Positions 15,535 through 31,023 of a stretch of DNA of 64,000 nt are shown piece by piece. A program made the position numbers and the translations under genes. Source of the stretch: Candidatus Latescibacterota bacterium (lineage in GTDB: Bacteria; Latescibacterota; UBA2968; UBA8231); the NCBI GenBank assembly GCA_965208105.1, contig OZ242318.1, positions 501,731 to 565,730 of the forward strand, in the 5' to 3' direction. Each line of letters begins with the position of its first letter. The stretch's first letter is position 1. Below the pieces are notes generated by a model, which was given only the letters and a program-made list of their open reading frames with translations, made no database searches and was not told the origin of the DNA.

Positions 15535-17067
15535 ATGGCTTTCTTCTACCTTGCCATTGCCGCCGCTCTCCTGCTCTTCACTCCGCCGGCTACGGCCGCC
15601 AAGGATCTACGCACCAAGGAGCAGCGCCTTTACGATATTCAGCTACGCAACGCCCAGTGGCAGATAGACAAGGCGCGGCTCGACATGGAAATCAAGCGGA
15701 GCGATTACGATGAGATCCAGGAACTCTTCGACCAGAAGATCAGTACCCTGGAGGCACTCAACGAGGCGCGACGCCACTACCAGCAAGCCAAGCTCAAATA
15801 CGATCAGGCCGTGATCAACCTCGAGTCGAGACGCCTCTCCTTTCTCAGGGACGCCACCCACATCTCGATTGTCGAGGCCAAGAAGTACCGCACCCCTGAG
15901 GGTTACCGCCAGGTGGAGATCACCTTGGAGAATGCCTCTAACCTCAACCAGGCCGCCTCGCTCAATCCCGACAAGAGCCTGGACGAGGTGAAGGCTCTGC
16001 TCGAAATCCAGAATGTCCGGATATCCGTGCGCCAGAACAATGACCTGATCATCGGCGACCCCTACGAGATTCTCGTACCCTCCTTCAGACTAGGCGAGCG
16101 CAAAAACCTGGTCTTTCGTTTGCTCAATGACTTGGACGATGTGAATATATCTTTGATCCTGCGCGACAACCAGCGGGAAGACTTCAGGATTGTGCTGCGT
16201 AAGGAGTCTCCCCAGGATATCCCCACCATTAATTCCGTGCAGTTTTCCCAAGAGGGCAACCTCAACTCCCGGGTCCACTACGACCTCATCTTGGAGCGTC
16301 TGGCCGAAGACGAGAAGACCTTTCACTTGAACGTCATCAACCTACCGCGCGAGATCGACTTCGCCTTTCTCGACAAGGCCACCAACGCCAGCCTCACCCA
16401 GGTGAAGTTCAGCGAAGAGGTCACCCGTCAGCAACTCGAACTCGAGATCCAGATCCCCGAAAAACTCAGCCGGCACTACGTTGACCAGACTATCGAGTTC
16501 TACGTCTTTGCCACCGACCAGGAAGGCTTCCAGCAGGTCAGCCAGTTGAACCGCAAGTACGGCGTCAAACGCATGGAATTGGAGGACATCAACTCCATCA
16601 AGGGGAACAAGGAGCGCTTTGAATTGATTCCCCGGGGACAAGGCGCCCTGGAGACGATCATCGCCAACCGCTACCAGGAGATCAGGGTGGGCGAAGAGGT
16701 CACCGTGCGACTCGACCTGCTCAATACGGGGACCCTTGAGGTCGAGGCGGCGCACTTGATTTTGACCCCCCCGTTGGGGTGGAGCCGTGAGGTCGCGCCC
16801 GATACCATCGCCCGCATCATCCCCGGCGAGAAAGAGCCCGTCAATATCATTCTCTCCCCCCCAGCCGAAATAGATGTAGGCGAGTACGGCGTCCGGGTGG
16901 AGGCGGCTGGCTACGTGGGCAGCGAGAAGGTCGAGGCCGAGGAAAAGGACATCACCATCCGGGTCGAGGCGCGCGCGCGTATCGTGCGCAATGCCCTCAT
17001 CGTCGTCGCGGTAATCGCCTTGGTGGTGAGCGTGGCTGTCTGGAGCATCAAGGTCAGCCGCCGATAA
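15535..17067 (+). CDS. secreted coiled-coil + NEW3/CARDB-like protein with C-terminal TM anchor (paralog 2)
   Basis: ATG at 15535, 3 nt after the previous stop. Signal peptide MAFFYLAIAAALLLFTPPATAAKD. Same domain order as 14018..15532 (VTVRLDLLNTGTLEVEAAHLILTPPLGWSREVAP...GEYGVRVEAAG; TM tail NALIVVAVIALVVSVAVWSIKVSRR). The track ORF start at 15244 runs through the upstream gene. Confidence 0.75.
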   Translation: MAFFYLAIAAALLLFTPPATAAKDLRTKEQRLYDIQLRNAQWQIDKARLDMEIKRSDYDEIQELFDQKISTLEALNEARRHYQQAKLKYDQAVINLESRRLSFLRDATHISIVEAKKYRTPEGYRQVEITLENASNLNQAASLNPDKSLDEVKALLEIQNVRISVRQNNDLIIGDPYEILVPSFRLGERKNLVFRLLNDLDDVNISLILRDNQREDFRIVLRKESPQDIPTINSVQFSQEGNLNSRVHYDLILERLAEDEKTFHLNVINLPREIDFAFLDKATNASLTQVKFSEEVTRQQLELEIQIPEKLSRHYVDQTIEFYVFATDQEGFQQVSQLNRKYGVKRMELEDINSIKGNKERFELIPRGQGALETIIANRYQEIRVGEEVTVRLDLLNTGTLEVEAAHLILTPPLGWSREVAPDTIARIIPGEKEPVNIILSPPAEIDVGEYGVRVEAAGYVGSEKVEAEEKDITIRVEARARIVRNALIVVAVIALVVSVAVWSIKVSRR

Positions 17068-17072
17068 AGAGA

Positions 17073-17147
17073 AAACCTGCGAAACTCCAAGCGGCCGAAT
17101 TGACCAAGTACGCGATCAAAGAAGGACCCGCTGGACCAGAGAAATAA
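17073..17147 (+). pseudogene. remnant of the 3' end of a LuxR-type response-regulator gene
   Basis: AACCTGCGAAACTCCAAGCGGCCGAATTGACCAAGTACGCGATCAAAGAAGGACCCGCTGGACCAGAGAAATAA aligns with the last ~70 nt of the RR gene at 12395-12466 (...VAELTKYAIKEGLTGLDE versus AELTKYAIKEGPAGPEK). No upstream coding part is present. Confidence 0.7.
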
Positions 17148-17164
17148 CCCCTGGGTCCGGTGCC

Positions 17165-17245
17165 TCTCCGCCGCAAAATCAGCTTTTCTGAAGGCAAAAA
17201 TCAGGTGTTTGCCCGATTGAAAAGCACCGTCTCCGTCTCTAATTT
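17165..17245 (+). promoter_or_regulatory. operator/promoter module copy A (upstream of the ABC ATPase)
   Basis: Palindrome GGCAAA-N9-TTTGCC at 17193-17213. Preceded by AAAATCAG (17175) and AAAATCAG (17197), 22 bp apart. Followed by TTGAAA (17217-17222), a 17-nt spacer and TAATTT (17240-17245). ATG of the next gene at 17290 with GAGGGAGG RBS. Homologous copies at 18685-18763 and 32180-32257. Confidence 0.6.
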
Positions 17246-17289: not shown

Positions 17290-18012
17290 ATGCTTGAAAT
17301 CATCTCCATGTCCAAGCACTACGGCGAGGTGCAGGCGGTCGACGAGCTCAACCTCACCATCCGCCCCGGTGAAATCTTTACTATGCTGGGGGCAAATGGC
17401 GCCGGCAAGACCACTACTCTTATGGTATCCCTTGGCTTTACCGAGCCGACGGCAGGCACGGTGAAGATCTGCGGCGTCGACGTGACCAGGGATCCCTTGG
17501 AGGCCAAAAAACACGTGGCTTACGTGTCAGAAAACGTCATGCTCTACGGCAATTTCACCGCCCGTCAAAACCTGGATTTCTTCGCCAAGTTAGGGGGGCG
17601 CAAGGACGCCACCGACGAAGAGTACGAGCGCATCATGGAGCGGGTGGGTCTGCAGGCGGACGCCTTCAACCGGAGGGTAAAAGGCTTTTCCAAAGGCATG
17701 CGCCAGAAGCTGGGCATCGCCATTGCGATCGTCAAAAACGCCGAGGTCATTTTGCTGGACGAGCCCACTTCAGGGCTGGATCCCCAGTCAGGGACCGAGT
17801 TTTTGCAGCTTTTGACCGAACTCAGGCACGAAGATAAAACCATCTGGATGACCACGCACGATGTCTTCCGCGCCAAGGCCATCGCCGACCGGGTGGGGAT
17901 CATGGTGAAGGGCAAGCTGGTAAAGACCTTTACGCGCGAGGAGTTGGAACGCGAGGATCTGGAGAAGATCTACGTGGAGTATGTCAGCCAGGAGGTGGGA
18001 CAGGCCGCCTGA
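17290..18012 (+). CDS. ABC-2-type transporter ATP-binding protein (no intact cognate permease adjacent)
   Basis: Walker A GANGAGKTT, signature FSKGMRQKLGIA, Walker B ILLDEPTSGLD. 240 aa, single NBD. Confidence 0.9.
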   Translation: MLEIISMSKHYGEVQAVDELNLTIRPGEIFTMLGANGAGKTTTLMVSLGFTEPTAGTVKICGVDVTRDPLEAKKHVAYVSENVMLYGNFTARQNLDFFAKLGGRKDATDEEYERIMERVGLQADAFNRRVKGFSKGMRQKLGIAIAIVKNAEVILLDEPTSGLDPQSGTEFLQLLTELRHEDKTIWMTTHDVFRAKAIADRVGIMVKGKLVKTFTREELEREDLEKIYVEYVSQEVGQAA

Positions 18013-18097
18013 GCACAACTCAGAAGTACTTACTTGTGATCGCCAAAAAAGAGATTGTCCACAATATCCTGAGTTTCAGGTCTGTGGCGATCCATGG
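18009..18097 (+). pseudogene. stub of an ABC-2 permease gene (first ~28 codons only)
   Basis: The frame overlapping the ATPase stop reads (L)STTQKYLLVIAKKEIVHNILSFRSVAIHG. This resembles the N-termini of the intact permeases at 24966/26383/27802 (MFKTILFKEIKGQLGTVTF). It has no ATG (CTG at the position of the usual ATGA overlap). Similarity ends near 18097. Confidence 0.55.
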
Positions 18098-18102
18098 GTT
18101 GC

Positions 18103-18196
18103 CAGTGGCAGTTTCGCGATCGAGTCAACGCCGGGGCAAGGCACGCGCTGCCTGCTGGCGGTTCCATTTTTATATCCAAGCCGGAGGGGACCCTCC
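18103..18196 (+). pseudogene. 3'-terminal remnant of a second sensor-kinase gene
   Basis: Encodes SGSFAIESTPGQGTRCLLAVPF, colinear with the C-terminus GGHFAIESSLGQGTSCLLTIPF of the kinase at 10677..11822. Nothing upstream of the G2 box is present. The reading frame runs into the next ATG without its own stop. Confidence 0.7.
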
Positions 18197-18628
18197 ATGA
18201 ATACGCAGGTGTTATTAGTAGAGGACCACGAGGCCGTGCGCCAGGAGCTGCGCTTGTTGCTTGAGCAACAAAGCGGAATTGAGGTAGTCGCCGAGGCCGG
18301 CGACGGCCGCACGGCCGTCGCCTTGGCCTCCACCTGTCTACCCGACATTGCGGTCATGGACGTTGGCCTGCCCCACCTGAATGGCATTGAGGCGACGCGA
18401 CAGATACGCGTCAAGGCGCCGGGCGTGAACGTGGTGGCGCTGTCGGTGCACGCGGACCGGCGTCTTGTAGACGGCATGTTTCAAGCAGGGGCTTCGGCGT
18501 ATGTGTTGAAAACGGCGGCTACCCGCGAGTTGGTGGAAGCGATCCGGCAGGTACAGGCCGGCCGCAAGTTCGTAAGTCCCGAATTGATCGCCCTCTTCGG
18601 CGAGGACTATGGCGCGTCTTCCTTCTGA
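18197..18628 (+). CDS. REC-only response regulator (LuxR-type paralog lacking the HTH domain; possibly a truncated gene)
   Basis: 143 aa. MNTQVLLVEDHEAVRQELRLLLEQQSGIEVVAEAGDGRTAVALAS...DIAVMDVGLPHLNGIEATRQIR is colinear with the RR at 11819..12466 up to ...SPELIALFGEDY, then diverges and stops. GGAGGGG RBS 7 nt upstream. Confidence 0.7.
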   Translation: MNTQVLLVEDHEAVRQELRLLLEQQSGIEVVAEAGDGRTAVALASTCLPDIAVMDVGLPHLNGIEATRQIRVKAPGVNVVALSVHADRRLVDGMFQAGASAYVLKTAATRELVEAIRQVQAGRKFVSPELIALFGEDYGASSF

Positions 18629-18684
18629 CGGCGCATTACAGAGAAAGATTCACCGAACTGGTGTTGTGAATCTCTCAGACACTC

Positions 18685-18763
18685 AGGCCGCAAAATCAGC
18701 TTCTCTGAAGGCAAAAATCGGGTGTTTACCCGATACCGACCAACCTGTCCTGTTGCTTAATTT
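18685..18763 (+). promoter_or_regulatory. operator/promoter module copy B (upstream of the peptide operon)
   Basis: AAAATCAG (18692) and AAAATCGG (18714) are 22 bp apart. Palindrome GGCAAA-N9-TTTACC. Conserved TAATTT at 18758-18763. The -35 position reads ACCGAC (poor), suggesting activator dependence. The first operon ATG is at 18860. Confidence 0.55.
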
Positions 18764-18859
18764 ATCCTTAAGAGTTGCGTCGATTTTTAACAAGTTGGAC
18801 AAGCAGCACTGGACGCCGAGGTAGTCGACCTACCGCCGCAAGCCTGGAGGAGAGATCGA

Positions 18860-20854
18860 ATGAAAAACATGAACATTAATAATGTATGCCTCTTCCTCGT
18901 GGGTATAATAGTATGGCCAACCTGTGGGACGGCAAGTTGGCACCTGAAGGCGTCCGGATATGAAGTTTCCAAGGTAAGGTATTCGATTTTCGGCGAAGGG
19001 TTGAAACAACACCGAGGATACTACTTTCCCGAATACCTGCCCGCAGACCGCGCGTTACATGTCGGATTCAAGCCCATCCGCTTCCAGAAATTTTCCGCCC
19101 TGGCCGAAGCTCTCGGCGCGAAAAGCGAAAAAATCCACGCTTGGAAAACCGAATTTGAGTCTCCTGTCAGGTGCTTGGACCAGATCACCTTCTTGTATCG
19201 CCGCATATATGCCAGGAACGTCAGTGAATACACAATTTATCTCCAATCCCCTCAGACTGAACAGTGGTACAGAAAAAGGATAATAATCCCTTTTAAGGGG
19301 TACCAGATCCCTTCATACGACGCGATTTCGCAATGGGAACCGTTGGTAGACGACGGCTCCGAAGAGGTATCCCAGTTTTTGAGCGAGGTTAACCATTTCG
19401 ATAAAATTGGCCAATTGGCGATCGTGGTTACTCCCTCGGATACGGACTTCGATTTTGTCATCGGAGACTTGCAAATAGTGGACCGGGAAATCGGCTATGC
19501 CGATTTCCATCATCCTTTTTTCGACCCGATTTTGAGCGAGGATTCCGCCCAGTACATCGAAAGAGATTCCTTTTACAATGCCTCAGGTATTCCCGCCCTG
19601 CTCCTTCCCATCAGTTGTTATGCCATGCACAGGAATTACGGGTCGGTTTTCCATTTCGACCCAGGGAATCGGGAAGTGGATGCCGGAGACATCAGGGACC
19701 TGAAAGTCAACGTTATCAAGCGAATTTTAGAGCTGTACTCATTCTATGAAGAACGCGGATTGGATAGGAAAAGCGCCCTGAACAGGTTTGCCTTCATCGA
19801 GAATTACGGGCTGGACAGAGAAGCTTTCGAGGACAGCGTCCGCGCTTTATTGGCAGATTTTCATGATGCCCATCTATCCGTAGCAAACAACGCCCATCTA
19901 TCCATAGCAAACAAGAAGAACAGATGCGCTTTCAATCATCCATTGGCGCTGTACAATATCGGCGGCAAAGTCTACGTGGCGGCGGTGTTCGACTCCCTAC
20001 TCGCGGACGATATAGAAGTGGGTATGAAGGTGCTCAAATTTGATGGAGTACCTGTGATTGAAGCGATAGACAGGGAAAGCGAGCATTACCGGGGCAGCAG
20101 CAAAATAAGAAGAAGGAAAGCGACGAGAAACCTGCTCGCATGCAGGCGAGACGAAAGGGCAACATTGAAACTTGCATCTGTTGATGGGGCAGTTAAAGAC
20201 GTCCTGATTGAAGACAGGAAAGTGCGGATTCCGTCGAATCTCGTGCCGCGACACGGAGAATTCAGGGTAGAAAGTGGGATAGTGTATTTTCGTATCCGCC
20301 AATGGACCTATGACGTGTGGATCCGGTTTTTGAACCATGCGGATGAACTCGAAAGCGCGAAGGGCCTGATCATCGATTTGAGGTCCAACGGTGGAGGTGA
20401 CGGCGGCACGGTGCTAAGGATGGTATCGGCGTTCATAGACGAGAACGCGCTATGTGGGAGCGAGTACTGTCCCGCCGACGGCAGAATCGAGAGCATGGTG
20501 ATAAGACCCAACGACAAATTCCATTTCGATCTGCCCGTCGTCATCCTGGCCAATGAGGCGACTGCCTGCGCAAGCGAGAACTTCATCGATATAATGAGAT
20601 CTACCAATCGGGCCATCATGGTGGCGGATAGTCACACACAGGGCCTTTTTTCGTCCAGGATCGACTTGATATTCCCGGACGGGATGAGGATTCATACCAA
20701 TAGCTTATCCAAACCGTTGAGACCCGATGGTTCTTCATACGAGGTAAAGGGGCTCGAGCCAGACATCTGGGTACACTTGAACACAATTGATGATCTGGCA
20801 CATCGGGAAGACAAGATACTGCGAACCGCAAATCATCTGCTGGAAGCGCAGTAG
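18860..20854 (+). CDS. S41-family (C-terminal processing / tail-specific type) peptidase with PDZ-like domain, N-terminal signal/anchor
   Basis: 664 aa. N-terminal hydrophobic segment VCLFLVGIIVWPTCG. PDZ-like GGKVYVAAVFDSLLADDIEVGMKVLKFDGVPV. S41 motifs GLIIDLRSNGGGDG and VVILANEATACASENF (Ser motif). The usual G-K-G lysine motif is not evident (DSHTQGLFSS). Lower-GC codon usage. Confidence 0.7.
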   Translation: MKNMNINNVCLFLVGIIVWPTCGTASWHLKASGYEVSKVRYSIFGEGLKQHRGYYFPEYLPADRALHVGFKPIRFQKFSALAEALGAKSEKIHAWKTEFESPVRCLDQITFLYRRIYARNVSEYTIYLQSPQTEQWYRKRIIIPFKGYQIPSYDAISQWEPLVDDGSEEVSQFLSEVNHFDKIGQLAIVVTPSDTDFDFVIGDLQIVDREIGYADFHHPFFDPILSEDSAQYIERDSFYNASGIPALLLPISCYAMHRNYGSVFHFDPGNREVDAGDIRDLKVNVIKRILELYSFYEERGLDRKSALNRFAFIENYGLDREAFEDSVRALLADFHDAHLSVANNAHLSIANKKNRCAFNHPLALYNIGGKVYVAAVFDSLLADDIEVGMKVLKFDGVPVIEAIDRESEHYRGSSKIRRRKATRNLLACRRDERATLKLASVDGAVKDVLIEDRKVRIPSNLVPRHGEFRVESGIVYFRIRQWTYDVWIRFLNHADELESAKGLIIDLRSNGGGDGGTVLRMVSAFIDENALCGSEYCPADGRIESMVIRPNDKFHFDLPVVILANEATACASENFIDIMRSTNRAIMVADSHTQGLFSSRIDLIFPDGMRIHTNSLSKPLRPDGSSYEVKGLEPDIWVHLNTIDDLAHREDKILRTANHLLEAQ

Positions 20855-20903
20855 AATCCATAGGCTTTGGAAGGCGACAAACTGTAAGAAAGGAGAACAT
20901 GCC

Positions 20904-21062
20904 ATGAAAGAGCTCATTAAGCCCAACTTGACTGAGGAAGAGTGCGAGAATAACGAGGTCGCGGCATATTGCGACCTTTATTCCTGCGCGCCCGTGAGTT
21001 GCAACCTTTGGTCGTGTCAACCCGTTTCGGGTGATGACGAGTCCGGGGACATTCTGTTCTAA
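20904..21062 (+). CDS. Cys-rich precursor-peptide candidate (52 aa) with four C-X3-S pentads
   Basis: AAGGAG (20889-20894) lies 9 nt before ATG 20904. MKELIKPNLTEEECENNEVAAYCDLYSCAPVSCNLWSCQPVSGDDESGDILF. It sits immediately upstream of a radical SAM/SPASM gene. The 91-aa track ORF from 20787 overlaps the end of the upstream gene and is less likely. Confidence 0.75.
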   Translation: MKELIKPNLTEEECENNEVAAYCDLYSCAPVSCNLWSCQPVSGDDESGDILF

Positions 21063-21248
21063 TTGCCAATTGTTCAGCGGAGGCCATAACAGCGAAGGAC
21101 CATTCGCCTGGAACACGTCTCTTGACCGTTTGACCCCATAACTACTTTTCGATCAGTTTGTCGCCTTCCACGTCTTTCAGAAGCCGTCTTAGACCCTCGG
21201 TGAGGATCACTAGGAACTTTAAGGAGGCTTCTTAAAAAGGAAAATGAG

Positions 21249-22730
21249 ATGTTTAAGTTGAGCTATTATACCTTCATCATCCCCGTAACCGAGAAGGGGA
21301 TGTACCTCGCCTATAATTCATTTACCAATGCATTGCTGGAATTGGAGTGGCATGAAGGCAAGAAGATGCTGGAGTGGAAAAAGAAGGATGCCATTCCCTC
21401 TTCGGAACTCGACAGCGAAGAAAAGCGCTTTGTAAACGCTTTGCTCAACAATCACTTTCTGGTAGACGAGGGGGTTGATGAGAAAGAGCGCTTGCATCGC
21501 CGCATTTCTACCCAGAAAGAAAGGTTCTGGAGAGAACCAGCGACCATGGCGCTCACCATATTGCCGACTATCTCGTGCAATATGGGTTGTTCCTATTGTT
21601 TTGAGGGATACAAGCCGTTCGGCAAGGTTATGAACAATGAGGTCATGGACGATATAGCCGAATTCGTGGTAAGAGAAATCAAGCAAAGCACTGTCGTCAG
21701 TTCCTTCAAAAAAATGTTCATCCAGTGGTACGGGGGGGAGCCCCTGCTGCAACCACATGTCGTCGATAGACTTTCGGAAAAATTGTACCGAATCGCCGAC
21801 GACAACCAAATCCCCTATACTTCGATGATCATTACGAACGGAACCTATCTAACGCCCGCTATATGGGATCTGTTAAAGGAAGCGAGAATTGACCGGATAC
21901 AAGTGACCATTGATGGCCACAAGGACTCCCACAACAGGCAACGCCCCCTCACCTTGCCGATCATCGGCCAGGAAATAGAGGCGGGTAGCTATGACACCAT
22001 ACTGGAAAACCTGAAGTATTTTCCGGACAAGATGGCTCTTAATATCCGGATAAATTCGGATAAGAATATAATCAATTCCCTGGGCGACCTCCTGGACGAC
22101 CTGGAGGAAATTGGCCTGTGGCCTCAGCAGGCTAGCCATGTGAGCCTGACCCTCGCCCATAAGGAAACTCCTTATGAAGAGTCGGGAGTAGTAGACATCG
22201 AGTCTCAGTACTTGAGCCTCAAGCAGCAAACCAAGGCGCAGAAGATATTCCAGGACATGAAGCTCAATCACTACAACAATTGGGCCTCCAAAAATAACAG
22301 GGTTTTGGCCAGGAAGCGTCTGGCCTACCCTGAACCGGCAACTTTTGTATGTGGGACTGCCTCGCTGCCTTACAGTTTTTCCATAAGTTACGACGGGCAT
22401 ATTCACCAGTGCATGGAGCAAGTCAACGATCCTAAAGCTAAGTCACATTACATTGGCGATACCTACAATATCCACGATCCCCTGCGGAAAATTTTCCTGA
22501 ACTGGGATAAATTCCTTCACCATCCAATGTGCACTGATTGCAGGGTACTGCCCATATGCGACATGGTTTGTCCTCACAAGGACCCGCCCGAAGCGTGCTG
22601 TGATTGGAAGGTAGACCTCAAATCGCGGTTGAAGGAGCAGTATATCGCGTCCATTGATACGCCCCACCTAATTGAGTCTTTCGACGCAGTAGAACAACAG
22701 CGGCAGAAAGATTTCACCCTCGTGATATAG
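21249..22730 (+). CDS. radical SAM / SPASM-domain peptide maturase
   Basis: CNMGCSYC (CxxxCxxC, 21576-21599). GGEPLL motif. SPASM 7-Cys pattern CGTASLPYSFSISYDGHIHQC ... CTDCRVLPICDMVC (C-x2-C-x5-C-x3-C). About 100-aa N-terminal extension that could be a leader-recognition (RRE-like) domain. Confidence 0.9.
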   Translation: MFKLSYYTFIIPVTEKGMYLAYNSFTNALLELEWHEGKKMLEWKKKDAIPSSELDSEEKRFVNALLNNHFLVDEGVDEKERLHRRISTQKERFWREPATMALTILPTISCNMGCSYCFEGYKPFGKVMNNEVMDDIAEFVVREIKQSTVVSSFKKMFIQWYGGEPLLQPHVVDRLSEKLYRIADDNQIPYTSMIITNGTYLTPAIWDLLKEARIDRIQVTIDGHKDSHNRQRPLTLPIIGQEIEAGSYDTILENLKYFPDKMALNIRINSDKNIINSLGDLLDDLEEIGLWPQQASHVSLTLAHKETPYEESGVVDIESQYLSLKQQTKAQKIFQDMKLNHYNNWASKNNRVLARKRLAYPEPATFVCGTASLPYSFSISYDGHIHQCMEQVNDPKAKSHYIGDTYNIHDPLRKIFLNWDKFLHHPMCTDCRVLPICDMVCPHKDPPEACCDWKVDLKSRLKEQYIASIDTPHLIESFDAVEQQRQKDFTLVI

Positions 22731-22744
22731 GGCCCCTAATACCC

Positions 22745-24640
22745 ATGCGAATAGCAATCATAGACAGCGGAATAGATGCGGGACACAAGCGTCTCAAGAA
22801 TTGCGTGTGCAGCGGCGTTTCGCTGCGGTGCGGCGAAGAAAAACCCACCCTTAGCTACGAATACGGCGACTGCCTGGGCCACGGGACCGCCTGTGCGAGC
22901 CTCGTGCACAAGGTGGACCCGCAGGCGGAAATAGTGGCGGTGAAGATATTTCACCGCGAGCTATCCGCCAAAGAGGAGCTACTTTGTGAAGGTATCAGAT
23001 GGTGTTTGGGCAACGACATCGACGTCATCAACCTGTCCCTCGGAATCCTGACGGATAGCCCCTCGCAAGCGCTGATCGGCCTGCTCGAAGAGGCCTTTGT
23101 GAAAAACGTCGTCGTCGTCTCGGCGGCGCACAACGACTTGAGGCTGGAATGCTACCCGGCGCATTTCCACACCGTGTTCGGCGTGACCTGGGGAAAGGTG
23201 GACCATCACTGCTTGTATGGTTATCTGCCCGACTCGGCCATCGAATTCATCGCCAAGGGGACGATACAGCGGGTCGCATGGAAAGACGGGGGCTATTCCC
23301 TATTGAGCGGAACGAGTATGGCCTGTGCCCATTTCACCGGCATCACCGCGGGCGTACTAAGGCAGAGCCCCTCTATGTCGGTCGGGGAACTCAGGAGCCA
23401 CCTTATCGGGAAGGCGGACGCGAATATTCGGGCGCTGCAACCTGGCAGCAAAATTCAGGGAGCCTTCCCGAGGATCATCAGCGGCGATCTGGACGAGGCG
23501 GGACGGAGGCTGTTCCGCTGGGAGGAAAAGATGGATTGGCTGGGGGACCTGGCCCTTTTTCCCGCCAGCGAAAAGGAGATGAGCGGCTTTGTCGAATTTC
23601 CCGGCTATTGTACGCAAAAGATAGCGAAGTACATTGACTACCCAAGAAACATGAAGAGGCAGGCCCCAAACGGCAGCGGCAAAAGCGATGCTATCAAAAC
23701 ATACGACAAGATGCTGGACGCGGCGGCTTGCGAAGACTTCGACACGATGGTTCTGGGATATTTTTTTGATCAACTCTTTGAGGCGAATATCCGCTTCGGC
23801 AACGACTTGCTGGCCGTGTGCATGGAGGCCCAAAAGAACCTCTACGTGTACGACCCCAGGTTGAAAGCTCATATCGATAGCCTGAACGGAAGTGCCAAGC
23901 CTTTGTTTCGGCTGTATATGCCGGAGGTCAATGGCCGGTTGCACGACCGTGTCATGCAGTTTCGCCATCTGCCCAGGGTACGGGTGCCCGTCATGGCAGT
24001 GATGGGCACGAGCAACCGCCAGGGGAAGTTCACCGCGCAACTCCGGCTCAAAGACATCCTCAACAGAGAGGAATACAAAGTCTGCCACCTATCCACTGAG
24101 CCCCAGGGTGAGTTGTTCGGGGCGGATTTCAGTTTTCCCTATGGCTATAACGGGACAGTTTCCATCCACCGCAAAAAGTGGTCGATGTTCCTCCGCACCC
24201 TGCTCAAAGCCGTCCAGGAATACAACAGACCCCATATCATCCTGACCGGGACACAAGGCATGACGATTCCCCGGGCACCCAACCAAGCCCCGCTGGGAAA
24301 TGAATGCGACAGCCTGGAATTCATGTACGGTGTCCATCCTGATGCTTTAGTTTGCGCCATAAATCCCCAGGATTCCATCGAACTGGTCGTCGACGCGTGC
24401 CAGGCGGCCCGGATATTCTGCGGGGCGGAACCCTTGTTTTTCATCATGACTCCCTGGATGAGAGACTACACGCGCGCCGGCAACGGCCGCATGGTACGCC
24501 ATCACCGATACCTGCATAAGGAAGAGATGGCGGAGAAAATGAACCATTTCCAGGAGGTATTGCACAAGCCGGTCATCGATATCATGGATTTGAACAATGA
24601 CAAGCTAATCTTGGACGCCATCCAGGATTTCTTTTCGTGA
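22745..24640 (+). CDS. S8 subtilisin-like serine peptidase fused to a ~400-aa C-terminal P-loop (DUF1611-like?) domain
   Basis: Catalytic triad contexts IAIIDSGIDAGH (Asp), CLGHGTACASLV (His), LLSGTSMACAHF (Ser), all within the first ~230 aa and with no signal peptide. The C-terminal part contains VMAVMGTSNRQGKFT (G-x5-GK-type loop). Confidence 0.75.
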   Translation: MRIAIIDSGIDAGHKRLKNCVCSGVSLRCGEEKPTLSYEYGDCLGHGTACASLVHKVDPQAEIVAVKIFHRELSAKEELLCEGIRWCLGNDIDVINLSLGILTDSPSQALIGLLEEAFVKNVVVVSAAHNDLRLECYPAHFHTVFGVTWGKVDHHCLYGYLPDSAIEFIAKGTIQRVAWKDGGYSLLSGTSMACAHFTGITAGVLRQSPSMSVGELRSHLIGKADANIRALQPGSKIQGAFPRIISGDLDEAGRRLFRWEEKMDWLGDLALFPASEKEMSGFVEFPGYCTQKIAKYIDYPRNMKRQAPNGSGKSDAIKTYDKMLDAAACEDFDTMVLGYFFDQLFEANIRFGNDLLAVCMEAQKNLYVYDPRLKAHIDSLNGSAKPLFRLYMPEVNGRLHDRVMQFRHLPRVRVPVMAVMGTSNRQGKFTAQLRLKDILNREEYKVCHLSTEPQGELFGADFSFPYGYNGTVSIHRKKWSMFLRTLLKAVQEYNRPHIILTGTQGMTIPRAPNQAPLGNECDSLEFMYGVHPDALVCAINPQDSIELVVDACQAARIFCGAEPLFFIMTPWMRDYTRAGNGRMVRHHRYLHKEEMAEKMNHFQEVLHKPVIDIMDLNNDKLILDAIQDFFS

Positions 24641-24954
24641 ACGGGCGTGAGGACGGCACCATGAGAGAAGCTATCGAGCAGCGATTGTACGAACTGATAG
24701 GGACGTTTGGAGACCAACCGATCAACTGCTCTGTTGAGAGCGAAGTGCGAAGGATGCTCCATATCATCTTGAGCGAGTCCATACAAGCGATGGAATTCGT
24801 CATCGCCATTGAGAACGAATTCGAGATCGAGTTCGACGACGAAGACATCTCCATCCAATTCTTCCTCGACCCGGATCATATCATCCAATCCGTGCTGAGA
24901 GGTCTGGCGCGGAAGGAGGCGGATGGCCTAACATCATCAAGTGCTGTCACCTGA
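24637..24954 (+). CDS. acyl-carrier-protein-like small protein
   Basis: LHIILSESIQAMEFVIAIENEFEIEFDDEDI aligns with the ACP helix II region (DSL replaced by ESI, Ser retained). GTG 24637 overlaps the upstream stop (GTGA). Alternative ATG at 24661. Confidence 0.6.
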   Translation: MNGREDGTMREAIEQRLYELIGTFGDQPINCSVESEVRRMLHIILSESIQAMEFVIAIENEFEIEFDDEDISIQFFLDPDHIIQSVLRGLARKEADGLTSSSAVT

Positions 24955-24965
24955 GGAGGTCTGCC

Positions 24966-26366
24966 ATGTTCAAGACCATTCTGTTCAAGGAAATCAAGGG
25001 CCAATTAGGCACGGTGACATTCGCCGTCTGGATGGGCGTCTCGTGCTTTCTGGTCTGGATGGCCCTGGAGAGCGGTTATTCGAGATACGAGCACAAGCAT
25101 CAGCAATACCTCGATATGGACAGGGTGGTCAAAGACGGCCTCAGCAAAGAATACGACGTCAACAAGGCGGAAGAGGAGCTCTTCCGGGTTTTGCGGCAGC
25201 CGTCGGTGTTGAGCGCAGTTGTCTACGGGCTGGAAGGCAAGATGCCGATCTATATGAGTGTCAATCCCAACGGCGTACGCTCCGGTTCGGGGTCAGGCAC
25301 GGAAGAATCCGTATTGAGCCTGTTCGGGGAGCTGGATTTTCTCCTGGTCATCGAGCTGATTCTCGGGCTGATGGCCGTGGTGCAGGCGGCCAGTCTGGTG
25401 TCTTCGGAGAGGGAAAACGGCACTCTGAAGCTGATATTGGCCAACCCGGTTTCCCGCAGCACCGTCTTGCTGGGCAAGTGTATGGGCGGATACGCTGTCG
25501 TCGCCTTCGTCTTTGTGTTTTCCTCCTTTATCGGGTTTTTGCTTCTCTCGATCAGGGGGTTTCCACTTTTCGAGTCGGACGTGCTCGCGCCGATACTCCT
25601 GATCTTGGCCGGGAGCCTGGTCTATTTGCTGTGCATCTTTCTGGTGGGGATGGTCGGTTCTATCCTGTTCCTGAACACTCAAACGGCCTTGATATTGAGC
25701 GTGTCGATCTGGGCCGCGCTGTCTTTTCTCGTTCCCAAAAGCGCCCGGATCGCGGCCGAGTTGATCCGCCCGGTAGAGGACGAGCGGACGGTTTACTTGC
25801 GTCAGAAGCACGCCCGTGAAGACCTGATCAGGGCCCAGCATGAGGAAATGAGCGAGAATTACCGCCAGGAGTTGACTCCAGAATGGCTGATGGCCAACTT
25901 CGCGACCTTGGCAGAGGAAGGCGCGGCAGTTTGGAAGAAATACAGCGACCGGATCTCCAAAGACCTGACCACCATCGCCGAGGACCACCACCGGGAGAAG
26001 AAAGCGCAGGAATCTCTGGGTAAGGTGCTGTCCCGGGTATCCCCCGCGGGCAGTTTCCGGCTGCTCTTGGCGAATTTGTCCGGTACGGGCGACCAGGTGA
26101 AGTGGGAATTACTGCAAGTGGCCTGGAACTACCAGAAAACGGTCAATGACAAGGTCTTCGCCAAAAAACCCTTGATCGCTGTCCAGAATATGAGTTTCCC
26201 CCATGATATGGGTACAGAGGATCCGCCGCCCCCACCTCTGGTCATGGCGCCGCCCCTCGGCAGTGTCTTGACCGAATCCGCGCTAGACACAGCCTTATTA
26301 TGCGTCTATGCCGTCATGTTGTTCATGCTGGCCTATATGCTGTTCCTGCGGCGCTCTATCGTGTAA
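24966..26366 (+). CDS. ABC-2-family permease-like membrane protein with long C-terminal extension, paralog 1
   Basis: MFKTILFKEIKGQLGTVTFAVWMGV. Conserved SSERENGTLKLILANPVSRSTVLLGK. Multiple TM helices. Pro-rich stretch and terminal TM helix near the C-terminus. Confidence 0.8.
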   Translation: MFKTILFKEIKGQLGTVTFAVWMGVSCFLVWMALESGYSRYEHKHQQYLDMDRVVKDGLSKEYDVNKAEEELFRVLRQPSVLSAVVYGLEGKMPIYMSVNPNGVRSGSGSGTEESVLSLFGELDFLLVIELILGLMAVVQAASLVSSERENGTLKLILANPVSRSTVLLGKCMGGYAVVAFVFVFSSFIGFLLLSIRGFPLFESDVLAPILLILAGSLVYLLCIFLVGMVGSILFLNTQTALILSVSIWAALSFLVPKSARIAAELIRPVEDERTVYLRQKHAREDLIRAQHEEMSENYRQELTPEWLMANFATLAEEGAAVWKKYSDRISKDLTTIAEDHHREKKAQESLGKVLSRVSPAGSFRLLLANLSGTGDQVKWELLQVAWNYQKTVNDKVFAKKPLIAVQNMSFPHDMGTEDPPPPPLVMAPPLGSVLTESALDTALLCVYAVMLFMLAYMLFLRRSIV

Positions 26367-26382
26367 TAGAGGAGTCATCCCC

Positions 26383-27786
26383 ATGTTCAAGACTATTCTG
26401 TTCAAGGAAATCAAGGGCCATTTAGGCACGGTGACATTCGCCGTCTGGATGGGCGTCTCGTGCCTGGTGGTATGGATGGCTCTGGAGAGCGGCTATTCGA
26501 GATACGAGCACAAGCATCAGCAATACCTCGATCAGGAACGAGAGGCGAAAAAAAGCCTCAGTAAAGAATACTTTGCGTTCTGGCCGGAAGAGGAAATATT
26601 CCGGGTGCTGCGCCAGCCGTCGGTGTTGAGCACCATCGTCTATGGGCTTGAAGGTGAGCTGCCGGTTTATCTGAGCGTCAACCCCAACGGCGTCCGGTCC
26701 GGTTCGAAGGGGATGGGTGGAGCTATGTCGCGCCTGTTGGGAGAGCTGGATTTTCTCCTGGTCATCGAGATGGTGTTCGGGCTGATGGCCGTCGTGCTGG
26801 CGGCCACTCTGGTGTCGTCGGAGGGAGAAAACGGGACGCTCAAGCTGATATTGGCCAACCCGGTCTCCCGCAGCACGGTCTTGTTGGGGAAGGGGCTGGG
26901 CGCCTTCGCCATCATCGCCTTTGTCTTTGTGTTTTCCACTTTTATCGGGCTTTTGTTCCTGTCGGTGAAGGGGTTTCCCCTCCTCGAACGGGAGGTGCTC
27001 GCGTCACTGCTCGTGATTGTGGCGGGAAGTCTGGTTTATTTGCTGTGCGTTTTCCTGGTGGGGATGATCTGCTCCATCCTGTTTTTGAACACCCGGGTGG
27101 CCTTGGTGCTGAGCGTCTTGCTGTGGGCGGTGCTGTCTTTTCTGCTGCCCAAAAGCGCCGGGACTGCGGCGGAGTTGATGCGCCCGGCAGAAGACGGTTG
27201 GACCGTTTACTTGCGTCAGAAATCCGCCCGTGAAGCCCATCTCAAGGCCCACCACGAGGAAGTGAACAAGCATTACCCCCATCTGGGTCCAGCCCCGGAC
27301 TCGAGGGATCTGGACTACCCAGGGATTACGGAGACTGCCGTAGCGGCTTGGGGGAAGTACAGCGACCGGATCGCCAAAGAAGTGACCACCATCGCCGAGG
27401 ATCACAATCGCAACAAGCAAGCCCAGGAAGCCCTGGGGAAGGTGCTGTCCCGGCTATCCCCCGCAAGCAGTCTCCGCCTGCTGTTGGCCAATGTGGCCGG
27501 CACGGGCGACCAGGTGAAGCGCAACTTCCTGCAAGCGGCCTGGAACTATCAGAATACGGTTGACGACAAAGTCTTCTCAAAAAGAATCCATATCACTATC
27601 AGGAAGAATCAGGGTTGGCCCTGGGACATGGGTGCAGAGCGACCGCCGCCCCTGCCCCCGCTCCTGCCGCCGTCTCTCGAGAGTGTCTTGGTGGAGTCGG
27701 CGTTAGAAATCGCTTTATTGTTCGTCTATTCCGTCTTCCTGTTCATGCTGGCCTATATGCTTTTCATTCGTCGATCCATCGCGTAG
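26383..27786 (+). CDS. ABC-2-family permease-like membrane protein, paralog 2
   Basis: ATG 26383 after GAGGAG. The first ~150 nt are nearly identical to paralog 1. SSEGENGTLKLILANPVSRSTVLLGK. Confidence 0.8.
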   Translation: MFKTILFKEIKGHLGTVTFAVWMGVSCLVVWMALESGYSRYEHKHQQYLDQEREAKKSLSKEYFAFWPEEEIFRVLRQPSVLSTIVYGLEGELPVYLSVNPNGVRSGSKGMGGAMSRLLGELDFLLVIEMVFGLMAVVLAATLVSSEGENGTLKLILANPVSRSTVLLGKGLGAFAIIAFVFVFSTFIGLLFLSVKGFPLLEREVLASLLVIVAGSLVYLLCVFLVGMICSILFLNTRVALVLSVLLWAVLSFLLPKSAGTAAELMRPAEDGWTVYLRQKSAREAHLKAHHEEVNKHYPHLGPAPDSRDLDYPGITETAVAAWGKYSDRIAKEVTTIAEDHNRNKQAQEALGKVLSRLSPASSLRLLLANVAGTGDQVKRNFLQAAWNYQNTVDDKVFSKRIHITIRKNQGWPWDMGAERPPPLPPLLPPSLESVLVESALEIALLFVYSVFLFMLAYMLFIRRSIA

Positions 27787-27801
27787 TAATGGAGTCTTAT
27801 C

Positions 27802-29229
27802 ATGTTCAAGACCATTATGTTCACGGAAATCAGGAGTCGCTTGGGCACGGTAACTTTCTCCCTGTGGCTGGGCGTCTCGTGCTTGGTGGTATGGATGGCT
27901 CTCGAGAGCGGCTACTCGAGATACGAGCACAAGCATCAGCAGTACCTCGATCTGAAACGGGCGGCCCAAGATGGCCTCAGCAAAGCATACATGCCGGTCG
28001 TAGCGGAAGAGGACATATTCCGGGTTCTGCGTGAGCTCTCCGTGTTGAGTGCCATCGTCTACGGGCTGGAAGGCGAGATGCCGGTCTATATGAGCGTCAA
28101 TCCCAACGGCGTACAGCCCGGGGCGGGGATAGCGGATAAATCCTTGTTGGACCTGTTGGGAGAGTTGGATTTTCTCCTGGTCATCGAGCTGATTCTCGGG
28201 TTGATGGCCGTGGTGCAGGCAGCCACTCTGGTGTCGTCGGAAGAGGGAAACGGGACGCTCAAACTGATGTTGGCCAACCCGGTCTCTCGCAGCACCGTCC
28301 TGTTGGGGAAGGGGCTGGGCGCCTTCGCCGTCATCGCCTTCACCCTTTTGTTTTCCACCCTTTTCGGACTTTTTTTGCTCTCGGTCCGGGGATTTCCGCT
28401 CTTCGAGGCAGCGGTGCTCGCGCCGATACTCTTGATCTTGACGGGGAGCCTGGTCTATCTGCTCGTCATCTTTCTGATCGGGCTGACCTGCTCTATTCTG
28501 TTTCTGAATTCCCAGGTAGCTTTGATCCTGAGTGTCTCGCTCTGGGCTGCGCTGTCTTTTCTCGTGCCCCAAAGCGCCTGGACTACGGCGGAGTTGATCC
28601 GCCCGGCAGAGAACGAGCGGACGGTTTATGTGCGGCAGAAATACGCCCGCGAAGCCCATCTCAATGCCTACCACGAGGAATTGAACAAGCGTTACCCCCA
28701 CCTGCAACCTGACGCAGAGGGCAATGCGGACTGGTCGGGGGTCAACCAGACCGAGTTGACGAAGGACGCGGTGGCGGTTTGGGCGAAATACAGCGACCGG
28801 ATCGCCAAAGAAGTGACCACCATCGCCGAGAACTACCACCGGAACAAGCAAGCGCAGGAAGCCCTCGGTAGGGTGCTGTCCCGGGTCTCCCCCACCGGCA
28901 GTTTCCGCCTACTCTTGGCCAACCTGGCCGGTACGGGCAACCAGGTGAGGTGGAAATTCTTGCAAGCGGCCTGGGACTACCAGAATATGGCAAACGATAA
29001 AGTCTTCTCAAAAGATCCCATGATCACTATCGGACCCTCGAGTTGGTGGCCCAGTATTATGCGGGGTGCAGATAACCCTCCTCCCCCACCTCCCCCACCA
29101 CCGGTCATGGTTCCGTCCCTCGGCAGCGTCTTGACAGAGTCGGCCTTGGACATGGCCATGCTGTTCATTTACGCCGTCGTGCTCTTCATGTTGGCGTATT
29201 CGCTGTTCATGCGTCGGTCCATTGTATAG
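27802..29229 (+). CDS. ABC-2-family permease-like membrane protein, paralog 3
   Basis: MFKTIMFTEIRSRLGTVTFSLWLGV. SSEEGNGTLKLMLANPVSRSTVLLGK. PPPPPPPPP tract before the last TM helix. Confidence 0.8.
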   Translation: MFKTIMFTEIRSRLGTVTFSLWLGVSCLVVWMALESGYSRYEHKHQQYLDLKRAAQDGLSKAYMPVVAEEDIFRVLRELSVLSAIVYGLEGEMPVYMSVNPNGVQPGAGIADKSLLDLLGELDFLLVIELILGLMAVVQAATLVSSEEGNGTLKLMLANPVSRSTVLLGKGLGAFAVIAFTLLFSTLFGLFLLSVRGFPLFEAAVLAPILLILTGSLVYLLVIFLIGLTCSILFLNSQVALILSVSLWAALSFLVPQSAWTTAELIRPAENERTVYVRQKYAREAHLNAYHEELNKRYPHLQPDAEGNADWSGVNQTELTKDAVAVWAKYSDRIAKEVTTIAENYHRNKQAQEALGRVLSRVSPTGSFRLLLANLAGTGNQVRWKFLQAAWDYQNMANDKVFSKDPMITIGPSSWWPSIMRGADNPPPPPPPPPVMVPSLGSVLTESALDMAMLFIYAVVLFMLAYSLFMRRSIV

Positions 29230-29266
29230 TCCGCCGCTCCCATTGCATGAGGATGAGTTGAGAGTT

Positions 29267-31015
29267 ATGAAACGCGTTCCTGACTCGGAACCTGGGATGA
29301 TCAGAGCTACACTGAAGAGAATCGGATTATACCGCGCAATTATGGCCAACGGACTGAATATATTGCTTCTGTGTATTATCGCCGCGGCAGTGGTAACGTT
29401 GACCATAGCCAAGCCCATCGTGTTTTCCAGGATAATTGACAAGGGAATCCTCAGTGAGGACTGGAGCGTGGTCCGCTCGCACTGCGTCTACTTCCTCATT
29501 ATTGCATTGGGCTTGAGTCTTTTCGGGTTAGCTCACTCTTTAGTCGCGTCGGTAATACACAACAAAATATCCTTGATAATCAAACAGGTTCTCCTGGAAC
29601 GGATCTTTCTCCTGGACGCCGGATTCTTCCACACGAACAAGACCGGAGACGTCATTACCAAGCTGGACAACGACGTATCGAGCATCCAGACCTACATCAT
29701 GTCGGTCCTGAACGCCTCCATGAACAATTTTATCAGCTTTCTAGGGGCGATGATCTATATCGGCTACGTGCAATGGAGGATGTTGATCGTCGGGTTCCTG
29801 GTGACCCCGTTTGTGGGTCTGGCCATTTACGCGTTCCGCAACGTGTTATACTCCAAGGACAAGAAGACCCGGGAGCGGAAGTCCGACGTAAATGACGCGA
29901 TAATAAACGCCGTCGACCATCAGCTTTACCTGAGGAAGGTCGGATTGGACTCGAGATCGCTGTCGAAGTGCAAATGGACCTTGGACCAGTACCGGGTCGC
30001 ATCCATCTTTTACGACCTATGGCGCGGCGGCAGCGGGTCGCTAAACAACCTCCTCCTTGCCGTCGGCTATATTGTTACCATCGGCTACGGTTCGTGGCTG
30101 GTCTTCAAAGGCATGCTCAGCGTCGGCAATCTTTTCGCATTTCTAACCCTGCGCACCATGTTCCTTGCCCCGCTGACGGTCTTCAAGGAAATCTACAGTG
30201 GGTACTTTTCGACTAAATCCGCATTCAAGCGCCTGGACGATTTCTTCTGCCATCGGATCGAGAAGGGTCTGGAACGCATGGACAACTCGAAACCCGAATC
30301 GTTTGGAGAGATCTGTTTGAGCAACGTATCGTTTGCCTATCCAGGGCAACACTGTCTGTTGAACCACATTGACGTTGAATTCGGCAGGGGCTGGAATATC
30401 CTGGCGGGTAGAAACGGTGCGGGGAAATCGTCATTGATCGACCTGCTCATGAAGATTTCGTCTCCAAGGGAGGGGCGCATCTTGGTCGACGGCGTAGATA
30501 TTGGCTCGCTCAACAATCAGTCATGGAGGTCCAACATCAGTGCCATGCCTCAAACCACGTACTTGTTCAAAGGGTCGTTGCGGGAGAACATTCGCCTGTA
30601 TGACGAGGGCATAACCGACGGTCGAATTCAGGCCGTGCTGAACCGCCTGAGCTTCGATTTCGATCCCGAAAAGCTACCAGCAGGGCTCGATACGAACATT
30701 ATGGAGGGAGGGACCAATTTTTCTGGGGGCCAGCGCCAAAAAATCGCGATCGCCAGGACCGCCCTCAAAGACACCCCTATCTACATCTTCGATGAACCCC
30801 TGTCCAGTCTGGATATGCGTTCGCGCGGCCTGGCCTTGGAGTACTTAAAAAAGGCGCTCAAAGGCAAGATCGTCCTAATCGTTTCACACGATGACATGGG
30901 CGAATATACGGATCGGGAGTACAGAATGAAAGACGGGGCCATCGTGACCACCGCCGCAAACGGGTTGGATCGTGTTCCAGAGGAGGGTTCCAATACTTTG
31001 CATATATCAGTCTGA
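29267..31015 (+). CDS. ABC exporter, fused transmembrane + ATP-binding domains (type I exporter, no C39 peptidase domain)
   Basis: ATG 29267. N-terminal 6-TM-type domain. Walker A GRNGAGKSS, signature FSGGQRQKIAIART, Walker B IYIFDEPLSSLD. Confidence 0.85.
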   Translation: MKRVPDSEPGMIRATLKRIGLYRAIMANGLNILLLCIIAAAVVTLTIAKPIVFSRIIDKGILSEDWSVVRSHCVYFLIIALGLSLFGLAHSLVASVIHNKISLIIKQVLLERIFLLDAGFFHTNKTGDVITKLDNDVSSIQTYIMSVLNASMNNFISFLGAMIYIGYVQWRMLIVGFLVTPFVGLAIYAFRNVLYSKDKKTRERKSDVNDAIINAVDHQLYLRKVGLDSRSLSKCKWTLDQYRVASIFYDLWRGGSGSLNNLLLAVGYIVTIGYGSWLVFKGMLSVGNLFAFLTLRTMFLAPLTVFKEIYSGYFSTKSAFKRLDDFFCHRIEKGLERMDNSKPESFGEICLSNVSFAYPGQHCLLNHIDVEFGRGWNILAGRNGAGKSSLIDLLMKISSPREGRILVDGVDIGSLNNQSWRSNISAMPQTTYLFKGSLRENIRLYDEGITDGRIQAVLNRLSFDFDPEKLPAGLDTNIMEGGTNFSGGQRQKIAIARTALKDTPIYIFDEPLSSLDMRSRGLALEYLKKALKGKIVLIVSHDDMGEYTDREYRMKDGAIVTTAANGLDRVPEEGSNTLHISV

Positions 31016-31023
31016 TATTCAGA

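Follow-up and report, generated by a model that had tools for sequence, protein, structure and literature searches.

Pfeiffer et al. (2025; PMC12703449) defined the 'DD(I/V)LF' family of orphan RiPPs (ribosomal peptides that are modified after their translation), in which only the arginases have been characterised. Their table of the flm cluster lists an 'S8 family serine peptidase' of 638 amino acids (aa; FlmH), an 87-aa acyl carrier protein (ACP) homologue of 'unknown function' (FlmJ), a holo-ACP synthase (FlmK), an S41 peptidase (FlmF) and a radical S-adenosylmethionine (SAM) enzyme (FlmE); flm also has a stand-alone condensation-domain protein and ohk an LPLAT-like protein. Here we analyse a locus of this kind in a 64,000-nucleotide (nt) stretch of DNA from a Candidatus Latescibacterota bacterium (contig OZ242318.1, positions 501,731 to 565,730; hereafter the window, with positions counted from its first letter). 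At its centre is a gene for a subtilisin-like (S8) protease fused to a C-terminal half that, from its predicted structure, is a complete two-domain DUF1611 protein, the nearest solved structure being the N-acetyltransferase DgcN. It is followed by a gene for an ACP-like carrier protein.

The window cluster shares with flm and ohk an MKEL..KP leader, a D-I/V-L-F end, a radical SAM enzyme of the FlmE/OhkG type and an S41 peptidase (FlmF, OhkF). The fusion (631 aa) has the size of FlmH, whereas OhkI, with only 371 aa, probably lacks the C-terminal module. In contrast to flm and ohk, the window cluster has no genes for a peptide arginase, a cupin/JmjC protein or a 2-oxoglutarate (2OG) oxygenase and no Arg in the peptide core, and it carries three additional ABC-2 permeases and a BtrH_N-like protein. 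The cluster appears to be a FlmA/'DD(I/V)LF'-type orphan radical-SAM RiPP locus.

A second described system, TIGR04066/TIGR04069/TIGR04068 (CcpM) of Clostridia and Paenibacillus, has the same gene set as the window cluster, namely a Cys-rich precursor, a radical SAM/SPASM enzyme, a DUF1611-related protein, an ACP-related protein and a subtilisin-like protease. In Paenibacillus polymyxa, SacP23 holds TIGR04068, TIGR04066 and TIGR04069 proteins together with a separate subtilisin-like protease (PMC10731318); their functions were only guessed there, that of the TIGR04066 protein as 'immunity'. Since protease and TIGR04066 protein are separate within one cluster, SacP23 corresponds to a split form of the fusion. 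The first-pass annotation of this DNA suggested a second, non-radical modification coupled to proteolysis, such as acylation or aminoacyl/peptidyl transfer, which it did not know from characterised thioether RiPP pathways; such chemistry is plausible for the locus. We found no functional study of TIGR04066/TIGR04069/CcpM-type maturation proteins in the literature. The genes themselves, however, had already been listed, in flm (PMC12703449), in SacP23 (PMC10731318) and as TIGR04066/TIGR04069. The arrangement of a protease-DUF1611 protein plus an ACP is already catalogued in family libraries and cluster tables, where it is uncharacterised, and the present locus is a Latescibacterota-like addition to it.

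The subtilase and its DUF1611/DgcN-like module

The list of open reading frames (ORFs) contains two on the + strand at 22745-24640 (631 aa) and 24637-24954 (105 aa), the fusion and the carrier gene, whose parts are as follows.

22745-23428, + strand: S8 (subtilisin-like) domain of the fusion, residues 1-228 (Pfam, PDB subtilisins, QhpE-like at 125 bits)
23429-23959, + strand: linker and N-terminal (Rossmann-like) subdomain of the DUF1611/DgcN-like module, about residues 229-405 (AlphaFold2 and Foldseek)
23960-24640, + strand: P-loop subdomain of the DUF1611/DgcN-like module, about residues 406-631 (Pfam DUF1611, TIGR04066, Foldseek)
24661-24954, + strand: carrier protein (ACP-like), 97 aa from ATG 24661 or 105 aa from GTG 24637 (family profile, AlphaFold2 fold)

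The Pfam family Peptidase_S8 (PF00082) covers residues 3-226 (E 6e-21; 75.4 bits against a cut-off of 21.8), and PDB subtilisins match this half at E ~3e-20. In the translation, the catalytic triad comprises D7 (IIDSGID; 22763-22765), H46 (HGTACAS; 22880-22882) and S191 (SGTSMACAH; 23315-23317); of 275 full-length relatives, 270 keep the Asp, 274 the His and 275 the Ser. The oxyanion-hole residue N130 (SAAHN) aligns with the AAAGN of subtilisin BPN' (N155 equivalent), and position 130 is Asn in 191 of the 275 relatives. With the catalytic Asp at residue 7, neither a signal peptide nor a pro-peptide would fit ahead of it. Judged by its sequence, the S8 half is a minimal, pro-peptide-less and cytoplasmic subtilase, closest to the leader protease QhpE.

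QhpE is said, in work by Nakai et al., to be the subtilisin-like leader protease of quinohemoprotein amine dehydrogenase maturation. Like the S8 half, it is a minimal cytoplasmic subtilase without a pro-peptide, and the setting is also alike, with a Cys-cross-linking radical SAM/SPASM enzyme (putatively so in the fusion cluster) and an ATP-binding cassette (ABC) exporter. The QhpE model (NF049966) was the best-scoring curated family, with 125.1 bits over all of its 219 positions, and matched 31 of 31 aligned relatives; its equivalog cut-off of 165 bits was not reached, so the S8 domain of the fusion is not a QhpE member. Unlike the fusion, QhpE has neither a C-terminal DUF1611 module nor a carrier protein. 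Moreover, no qhp dehydrogenase (QHNDH subunit) genes lie beside the fusion, the neighbours of which are genes for a FlmA-type precursor, a FlmE-type enzyme, ABC proteins and an S41 peptidase.

The C-terminal half matches Pfam DUF1611 (PF07755) over residues 411-546 (E 4e-7; 30.0 bits against a gathering cut-off of 25), a domain for which almost all homologues have a precomputed match. For residues 231-631, AlphaFold2 gave a model with a predicted local distance difference test score (pLDDT) of 88.6 and a predicted template modelling (TM) score of 0.88. Its top Foldseek matches in the PDB were 7xrj (DgcN), followed by 2g0t (TM0796) and 2obn (Ava_3511, DUF1611), with E 1.4e-11 to 3.4e-9, a probability of 1.0, target-normalised TM scores of 0.63-0.67 and ~400 aligned columns. 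As alignments of this length extend along full-length DUF1611 structures, both DUF1611 domains are present in the module. Weaker structural neighbours were cDPG synthetase, the MurC/D/E ligases, BioD, MinD/ParF and the SRP GTPases.

The PDB entry 7xrj carries the title 'N-acetyltransferase DgcN', an activity for which Yu et al. (2023, as cited in PMC12363236) are the source. Transfer of an acyl group to an amine is thus the one chemistry known for this fold. DgcN resembles the module in having a Rossmann-like N-domain, a BioD-like P-loop domain and a G-x5-GK-x-T loop. In contrast to the module, which is fused to a protease and has a carrier partner, DgcN, which is encoded with dgcA, is a stand-alone protein of D-glutamate catabolism that uses a free amino acid (D-Glu) and acetyl-CoA; the genomic context of the fusion is a RiPP cluster, not D-amino-acid catabolism. 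The loop of the module, GTSNRQGKFT (residues 421-430; 24005-24034), has the same BioD/DUF1611 variant form, with an extra residue and a Phe after the Lys, and does not fit the canonical Walker A motif GxxxxGK[ST].

Ten residues of the module, K277, E278, D333, G421, G427, K428, Q432, E452, D533 and D543, are near-invariant, each being kept in 267 or more of the 275 relatives (K428 in 269 and E452 in 271). K277 and E278 belong to an SEKE motif, D333 to FDT and E452 to TEPQG. Near-invariance of this kind favours catalysis over a relic, and since both halves of the fusion keep near-invariant residues of catalytic type, we regard a pseudo-enzyme as unlikely. The NCBIfam model TIGR04066 ('peptide maturation system protein') also matches the module, at E 1e-11 and 44-46 bits against a cut-off of 200, through model positions 140-350 only; all 31 of 31 relatives match it, the best at 4e-24.

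These results bear out what the first-pass annotation had proposed for the two halves. It had described a cytoplasmic S8 protease with an intact triad and no signal peptide, as the Pfam match, D7/H46/S191 and the position of the Asp indicate. It had also likened the C-terminal half, with a question mark, to the DUF1611/DgcN-type P-loop fold, which Pfam now supports above its cut-off and which the AlphaFold2 and Foldseek matches, led by DgcN, support in turn. The region thus has an NTP-binding-type fold, a P-loop DUF1611 domain by both Pfam and structure, and the link that the annotation drew between this fold and acyl/acetyl transfer agrees with the title of PDB 7xrj.

The carrier protein and the conserved core of the locus

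Taken singly, the ACP-like protein scored 17.7 bits against PP-binding (PF00550), below the gathering cut-off of 20.8, and reached E 1e-6 against the NCBIfam ACP models (ACP PRK12449), also below their cut-offs. Homologues were gathered from 71 related loci, and a profile built from 34 of them matched 139 PDB carrier proteins, the best being the aminoacyl carrier protein 4h2w (9e-12), E. coli-type ACPs (~1e-10) and DltC (2e-9). ACP PRK07081 was matched by 25 of the 34 family members and TIGR04069 by five. In an AlphaFold2 model of the window protein (pLDDT 81.8), the top 25 Foldseek matches were all carrier proteins, with TM scores of up to 0.76; among them were ACP, DltC and aminoacyl-carrier proteins. 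All 34 family members keep the Ser of the (D/E)S motif. In the window protein this is S40 (97-aa numbering; SESIQ; 24778-24780), the putative phosphopantetheine Ser, which aligns with the attachment Ser of 4h2w and begins helix II (40-54) in the model. On these grounds the small protein is a true carrier-protein homologue, with a predicted four-helix fold and the putative attachment Ser kept.

Phosphopantetheinylation of this Ser is favoured indirectly, by its invariance, by the holo-ACP synthase FlmK of flm and by AcpS-type holo-ACP synthase genes inside five related loci (L007, L008, L009, L018 and L022). In one of these, from Mucilaginibacter rubeus (L009), the AcpS gene (3735-4457) starts 10 nt after the ACP-like gene.

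The first-pass annotation was right to see an ACP-like protein with a retained Ser, as the family profile, the predicted fold and the 34 of 34 Ser show. Its further claim, that the gene is translationally coupled to the fusion through a GTGA overlap, held only in part. A GTG at 24637 does overlap the TGA stop of the fusion gene, but the ATG at 24661 is preceded by a Shine-Dalgarno sequence of its own (GAGGA; 24649-24653) at a spacing of 7 nt. The same arrangement, a Shine-Dalgarno sequence and an ATG 17-20 nt after the stop, recurs in four relatives from Latescibacterota and Gemmatimonadota (L001-L004), and database homologues are mostly called as 97 aa. The apparent GTGA is explained by a last codon xCG followed by TGA, in relatives too. 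Translational coupling of this type is thus unlikely; from these sequence features the carrier probably starts at ATG 24661, leaving a real gap of ~20 nt between two tightly linked genes.

To what extent is the pairing conserved? A word-indexed search returned 514 homologues of the fusion, more than 110 of them full-length with both Pfam domains (31-84% identity), while an exhaustive HMMER search with the C-terminal module alone gave 812 clusters at E <= 1e-3 and 666 at E <= 1e-10, counted as clusters at 50% identity. Among the module-bearing proteins retrieved, 204 were fused to S8, 11 stood alone and 20 were fragments, so that the fusion is the dominant architecture of its subfamily. Searching one genome per species yielded 116 relatives, from Latescibacterota, Gemmatimonadota, Bacteroidota, Bacillota, Ignavibacteriota and Spirochaetota; the proteins from Latescibacterota metagenome-assembled genomes are 83-86% identical.

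Of 79 fusion loci, 70 carried an ACP-like gene and 64 a radical SAM/SPASM gene, in both cases on the strand of the fusion; a member of the ABC exporter family occurred in 69, and an S41 peptidase together with a DILF-type precursor in 17. Nine loci lack an ACP-like gene. In four of them (L011, L038, L062 and L075) the sequence on one side of the fusion extends for only 0-3.8 kb, and eight of the nine also lack a radical SAM gene, the exception being L011. All-against-all clustering of the 1351 neighbourhood genes gave five families present in more than 20 loci: the fusion, the ABC exporters, the radical SAM enzyme, the ACP-like protein and the BtrH-like protein. The same clustering revealed no conserved family of adenylating enzymes, acyltransferases or ketosynthases, so that the DUF1611 module is the one candidate partner for the carrier protein that is widely conserved. 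Fusion, carrier, radical SAM enzyme and ABC exporter are the conserved core of hundreds of loci, and the proposed association of fusion and carrier gene is clearly not peculiar to the window.

Some loci carry further genes within this arrangement. In Bacteroidota loci, genes for a cupin/JmjC hydroxylase and a 2OG-Fe(II) oxygenase lie between the fusion and the ACP-like gene (L010, at 11975-13736, and L012, L016, L017, L019-L021 and L025), which hints at a hydroxylation linked to the carrier protein or the peptide. In a Roseburia locus (L037), a carbamoyltransferase gene (Carbam_trans_N/C; 15562-17238) stands between the exporters and the BtrH-like gene and is possibly an additional tailoring step.

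Candidate chemistry of the module and the carrier protein

We infer, as our best if still tentative reading, that leader cleavage is coupled to carrier-dependent acyl transfer onto the peptide. In this scheme, the radical SAM enzyme would cross-link the Cys-rich core, after which the S8 domain would cut the leader in the cytoplasm, by analogy with QhpE. The tethered DgcN-like module would then acylate the peptide, most likely at the alpha-amine freed by cleavage, with the acyl group supplied or relayed by the holo-carrier protein. The last steps would be export of the product and trimming of its DILF tail by the S41 peptidase. As the core CDLYSCAPVSCNLWSCQPVSGDDESGDILF contains no Lys, Arg or Orn and hence offers no amine on a side chain, the new alpha-amine is the likeliest acceptor, and since the module is fused to the protease, cleavage followed by capping is the simplest logic. 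Acyl transfer is suggested for the module by the activity of DgcN (7xrj title; Yu et al. 2023 via PMC12363236).

Several points weigh against such a scheme. The module is only 13-15% identical to the DUF1611 structures, a remote relation, and a search of the PDB with its sequence profile produced just two matches, at chance level, so that the DUF1611 link comes from Pfam and the fold. Queries with AcpS and Sfp sequences detected no phosphopantetheinyl transferase in the 64-kb window and gave strong matches in other loci, and nothing in the window appears to build an acyl group or load it on the carrier. If the module worked as DgcN does, with acetyl-CoA on a free amino acid, it would not be expected to need a carrier protein. 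Finally, the predicted fold class (BioD, Mur ligases, cDPG synthetase) would fit an ATP-dependent ligase equally well.

A ligase is accordingly the alternative that survives best, although we consider it rather unlikely. Here the module would be an ATP-dependent enzyme of the BioD/CobQ/Mur type, which loads an acid or amino acid as a thioester on the holo-carrier for another protein to unload; in the manner of BtrJ/BtrI/BtrH, the unloader could be the BtrH-like protein or, in other clusters, a condensation-domain or LPLAT enzyme. The structural neighbours that rank after the DUF1611 proteins are ATP-using ligases and SIMIBI NTPases, the P-loop Lys is kept in 269 of 275 relatives, and no other conserved loader was found across the 79 neighbourhoods. 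Possible unloaders exist in the BtrH_N-like gene of ~45 loci, in the condensation-domain protein of flm and in the LPLAT-like protein of ohk, and BtrH, AsbE and CtaG give a precedent as carrier-dependent transacylases (PMC12865890). However, the only characterised DUF1611 protein is an acetyl-CoA-dependent acetyltransferase (7xrj title), and the loop reads G-x5-GK-F-T rather than GK[ST]. In addition, the BtrH-like protein of the window has no catalytic Cys, BtrH-like genes are missing from Bacteroidota-type loci, and fusion of the module to a protease would be left unexplained.

It is also conceivable, but improbable, that module and ACP-like protein are non-catalytic, acting as a binding scaffold or a nucleotide-controlled regulator of the protease, or persisting as relics of another pathway. 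No activity is known for any member, the window proteins fall below the TIGR04066 and PP-binding cut-offs, and the BtrH-like neighbour seems to have lost its nucleophile. Against this, the carrier Ser and some ten Gly or polar positions in the module are near-invariant across phyla at 30-50% overall identity, several clusters have dedicated holo-ACP synthase genes, and the co-occurrence is too consistent for a relic. Least probable of all is a peptidyl-S-carrier, in which the thiol of phosphopantetheine, held in place by the DgcN-like module, would resolve the Ser191 acyl-enzyme, much as PatG-type subtilases use an amine for theirs, and the bound peptide would go on to cyclisation or C-terminal chemistry: a protease and what may be a CoA/pantetheine-type binding module do share one polypeptide, with a carrier gene nearby in 70 of 79 loci and no conserved carrier-loading enzyme, but the idea is purely speculative, transfer from S8 to an ACP is without precedent, leader cleavage would tether the leader and not the core, and the weak similarity of the S8 half to PatA/PatG is generic to S8 (22 bits against a cut-off of 421).

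To our knowledge, carrier proteins are rare in RiPP biosynthesis, and the few known cases make hybrid lipopeptides. In goadvionin, the GNAT enzyme GdvG transfers an acyl group from acyl-ACP to the RiPP N-terminus, and butirosin uses BtrI/BtrJ/BtrH. BtrH, AsbE and CtaG are carrier-protein-dependent transacylases of a Cys-His-Asp papain-like type (PMC12865890). Goadvionin, the selidamides, butirosin and CtaG-type systems all have a dedicated small carrier that donates an acyl or aminoacyl group to an amine on a peptide or an aminoglycoside, as proposed here for the window cluster, whose operon also includes a BtrH_N-like gene. The transferases of goadvionin, butirosin and CtaG are GNAT or papain-like enzymes, whereas the conserved partner in the window cluster is a DUF1611 module. 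With greater reserve than for acyl transfer as such, we suggest that the DgcN-like module and the carrier constitute a new, non-GNAT form of carrier-dependent RiPP tailoring that is physically tied to proteolysis of the leader. Acylation or aminoacylation of the N-terminus, or even a transient tethering of the peptide to the carrier, would be conceivable reactions.

The proposed coupling of protease and acyl transfer would have consequences for a number of orphan systems. A carrier protein and a DgcN-like enzyme stand in the core of a large and phylogenetically broad family of radical-SAM peptide clusters, which includes the orphan 'DD(I/V)LF' loci (2025) and the Clostridial/Paenibacillus CcpM-type bacteriocin loci. 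For FlmH, FlmJ, FlmK, TIGR04066 and TIGR04069 it supplies a testable hypothesis, protease first and then acyl transfer from the carrier, and the annotation of the fusion proteins, now labelled only 'S8 family serine peptidase', would be improved. If the module and carrier do perform such a new tailoring, the sequence clusters of this fusion, which number more than 800 and come from at least four phyla, would represent a large unrecognised class of acylated or capped radical-SAM peptides, and the DUF1611 fold would gain a second, protein-directed function.

Precursor, maturase and neighbouring genes

The fusion and the carrier gene belong to a run of genes on the same strand from 18860 to 32082 (ORF list with Pfam and NCBIfam). 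Its other members are as follows.

18860-20854, + strand: S41 C-terminal-processing-type peptidase with a hydrophobic N-terminus (Pfam Peptidase_S41, E 5e-20)
20904-21062, + strand: precursor peptide, 52 aa (NCBIfam FlmA_fam_RIPP, 28.3 bits against a cut-off of 30)
21249-22730, + strand: radical SAM/SPASM peptide maturase, 493 aa (Pfam Radical_SAM, E 9e-15)
24966-26366, 26380-27786 and 27802-29229, + strand: three ABC-2 permease paralogues (Pfam ABC2_membrane_2)
29222-31015, + strand: ABC exporter, 597 aa (Pfam ABC_membrane and ABC_tran)
31024-32082, + strand: BtrH_N-like (papain-fold) protein (BtrH_N, E 1.8e-6, just under the cut-off)

A FlmA-type precursor and a radical SAM/SPASM maturase thus lie upstream of the fusion on its own strand, in agreement with the peptide-maturation setting proposed at the outset. 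The G+C content is 49-55% across the cluster (~18000-32000) and 60-66% in the flanks, and this lower value suggests horizontal acquisition. A scan of the whole window gave no tRNA gene, and promoter- and terminator-like matches in the window were no more frequent than in shuffled sequence. Directly downstream of the cluster lies a 127-aa ORF (32820-33203) without a Pfam match.

The precursor starts with MKELIKP, has the core YCDLYSCAPVSCNLWSC (C-x4-C-x4-C-x4-C) and ends in DESGDILF; it falls just under the cut-off of the FlmA-family model (NF052472). Similar MKEL(I/V)KP...D(I/V)LF peptides occur in 17 related loci. The S41 peptidase co-occurs only with precursors that end in D(I/V)LF (17 loci), a restriction which suggests that outside the cytoplasm the tail is recognised or trimmed as a follower. 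As a further observation, the core has a Cys at every fifth position, in a repeated x-x-S-C unit, and resembles the 'Cys-every-fifth' CefB-type systems.

The maturase matches the Cys-every-fifth CefB-type family at E 2.5e-41. Its best NCBIfam match was FlmE/OhkG (378 bits against a cut-off of 500), with lesser matches to Cys-rich, PapB, CcpM, SCIFF and QhpD-type maturases. The radical SAM enzyme would be predicted to form thioethers.

The BtrH_N-like family is found in ~45 related loci and is absent from Bacteroidota-type loci. Of 35 members, nine match BtrH_N and two match DarH, and a nucleophilic Cys is present in only five, including that of locus L001. The window protein keeps His134 and has His/Tyr at the position of the nucleophile, so it does not possess the Cys-His-Asp triad; it may be a pseudo-enzyme or use another nucleophile. 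The idea that the BtrH-like protein transfers the group from ACP to peptide is weakened both by this missing Cys and by the absence of the family from Bacteroidota-type loci.

The three ABC-2 permease paralogues are 67-68% identical to each other, and a matching ABC ATPase is encoded upstream at 17290-18012. Permeases and ATPase may make up a pump for immunity or efflux that is distinct from the 597-aa exporter. Further upstream, at 12678-17067, a gene for an outer-membrane efflux protein (OEP) is followed by two paralogues of ~505 aa that are 39% identical, and these may be part of an export or immunity apparatus.

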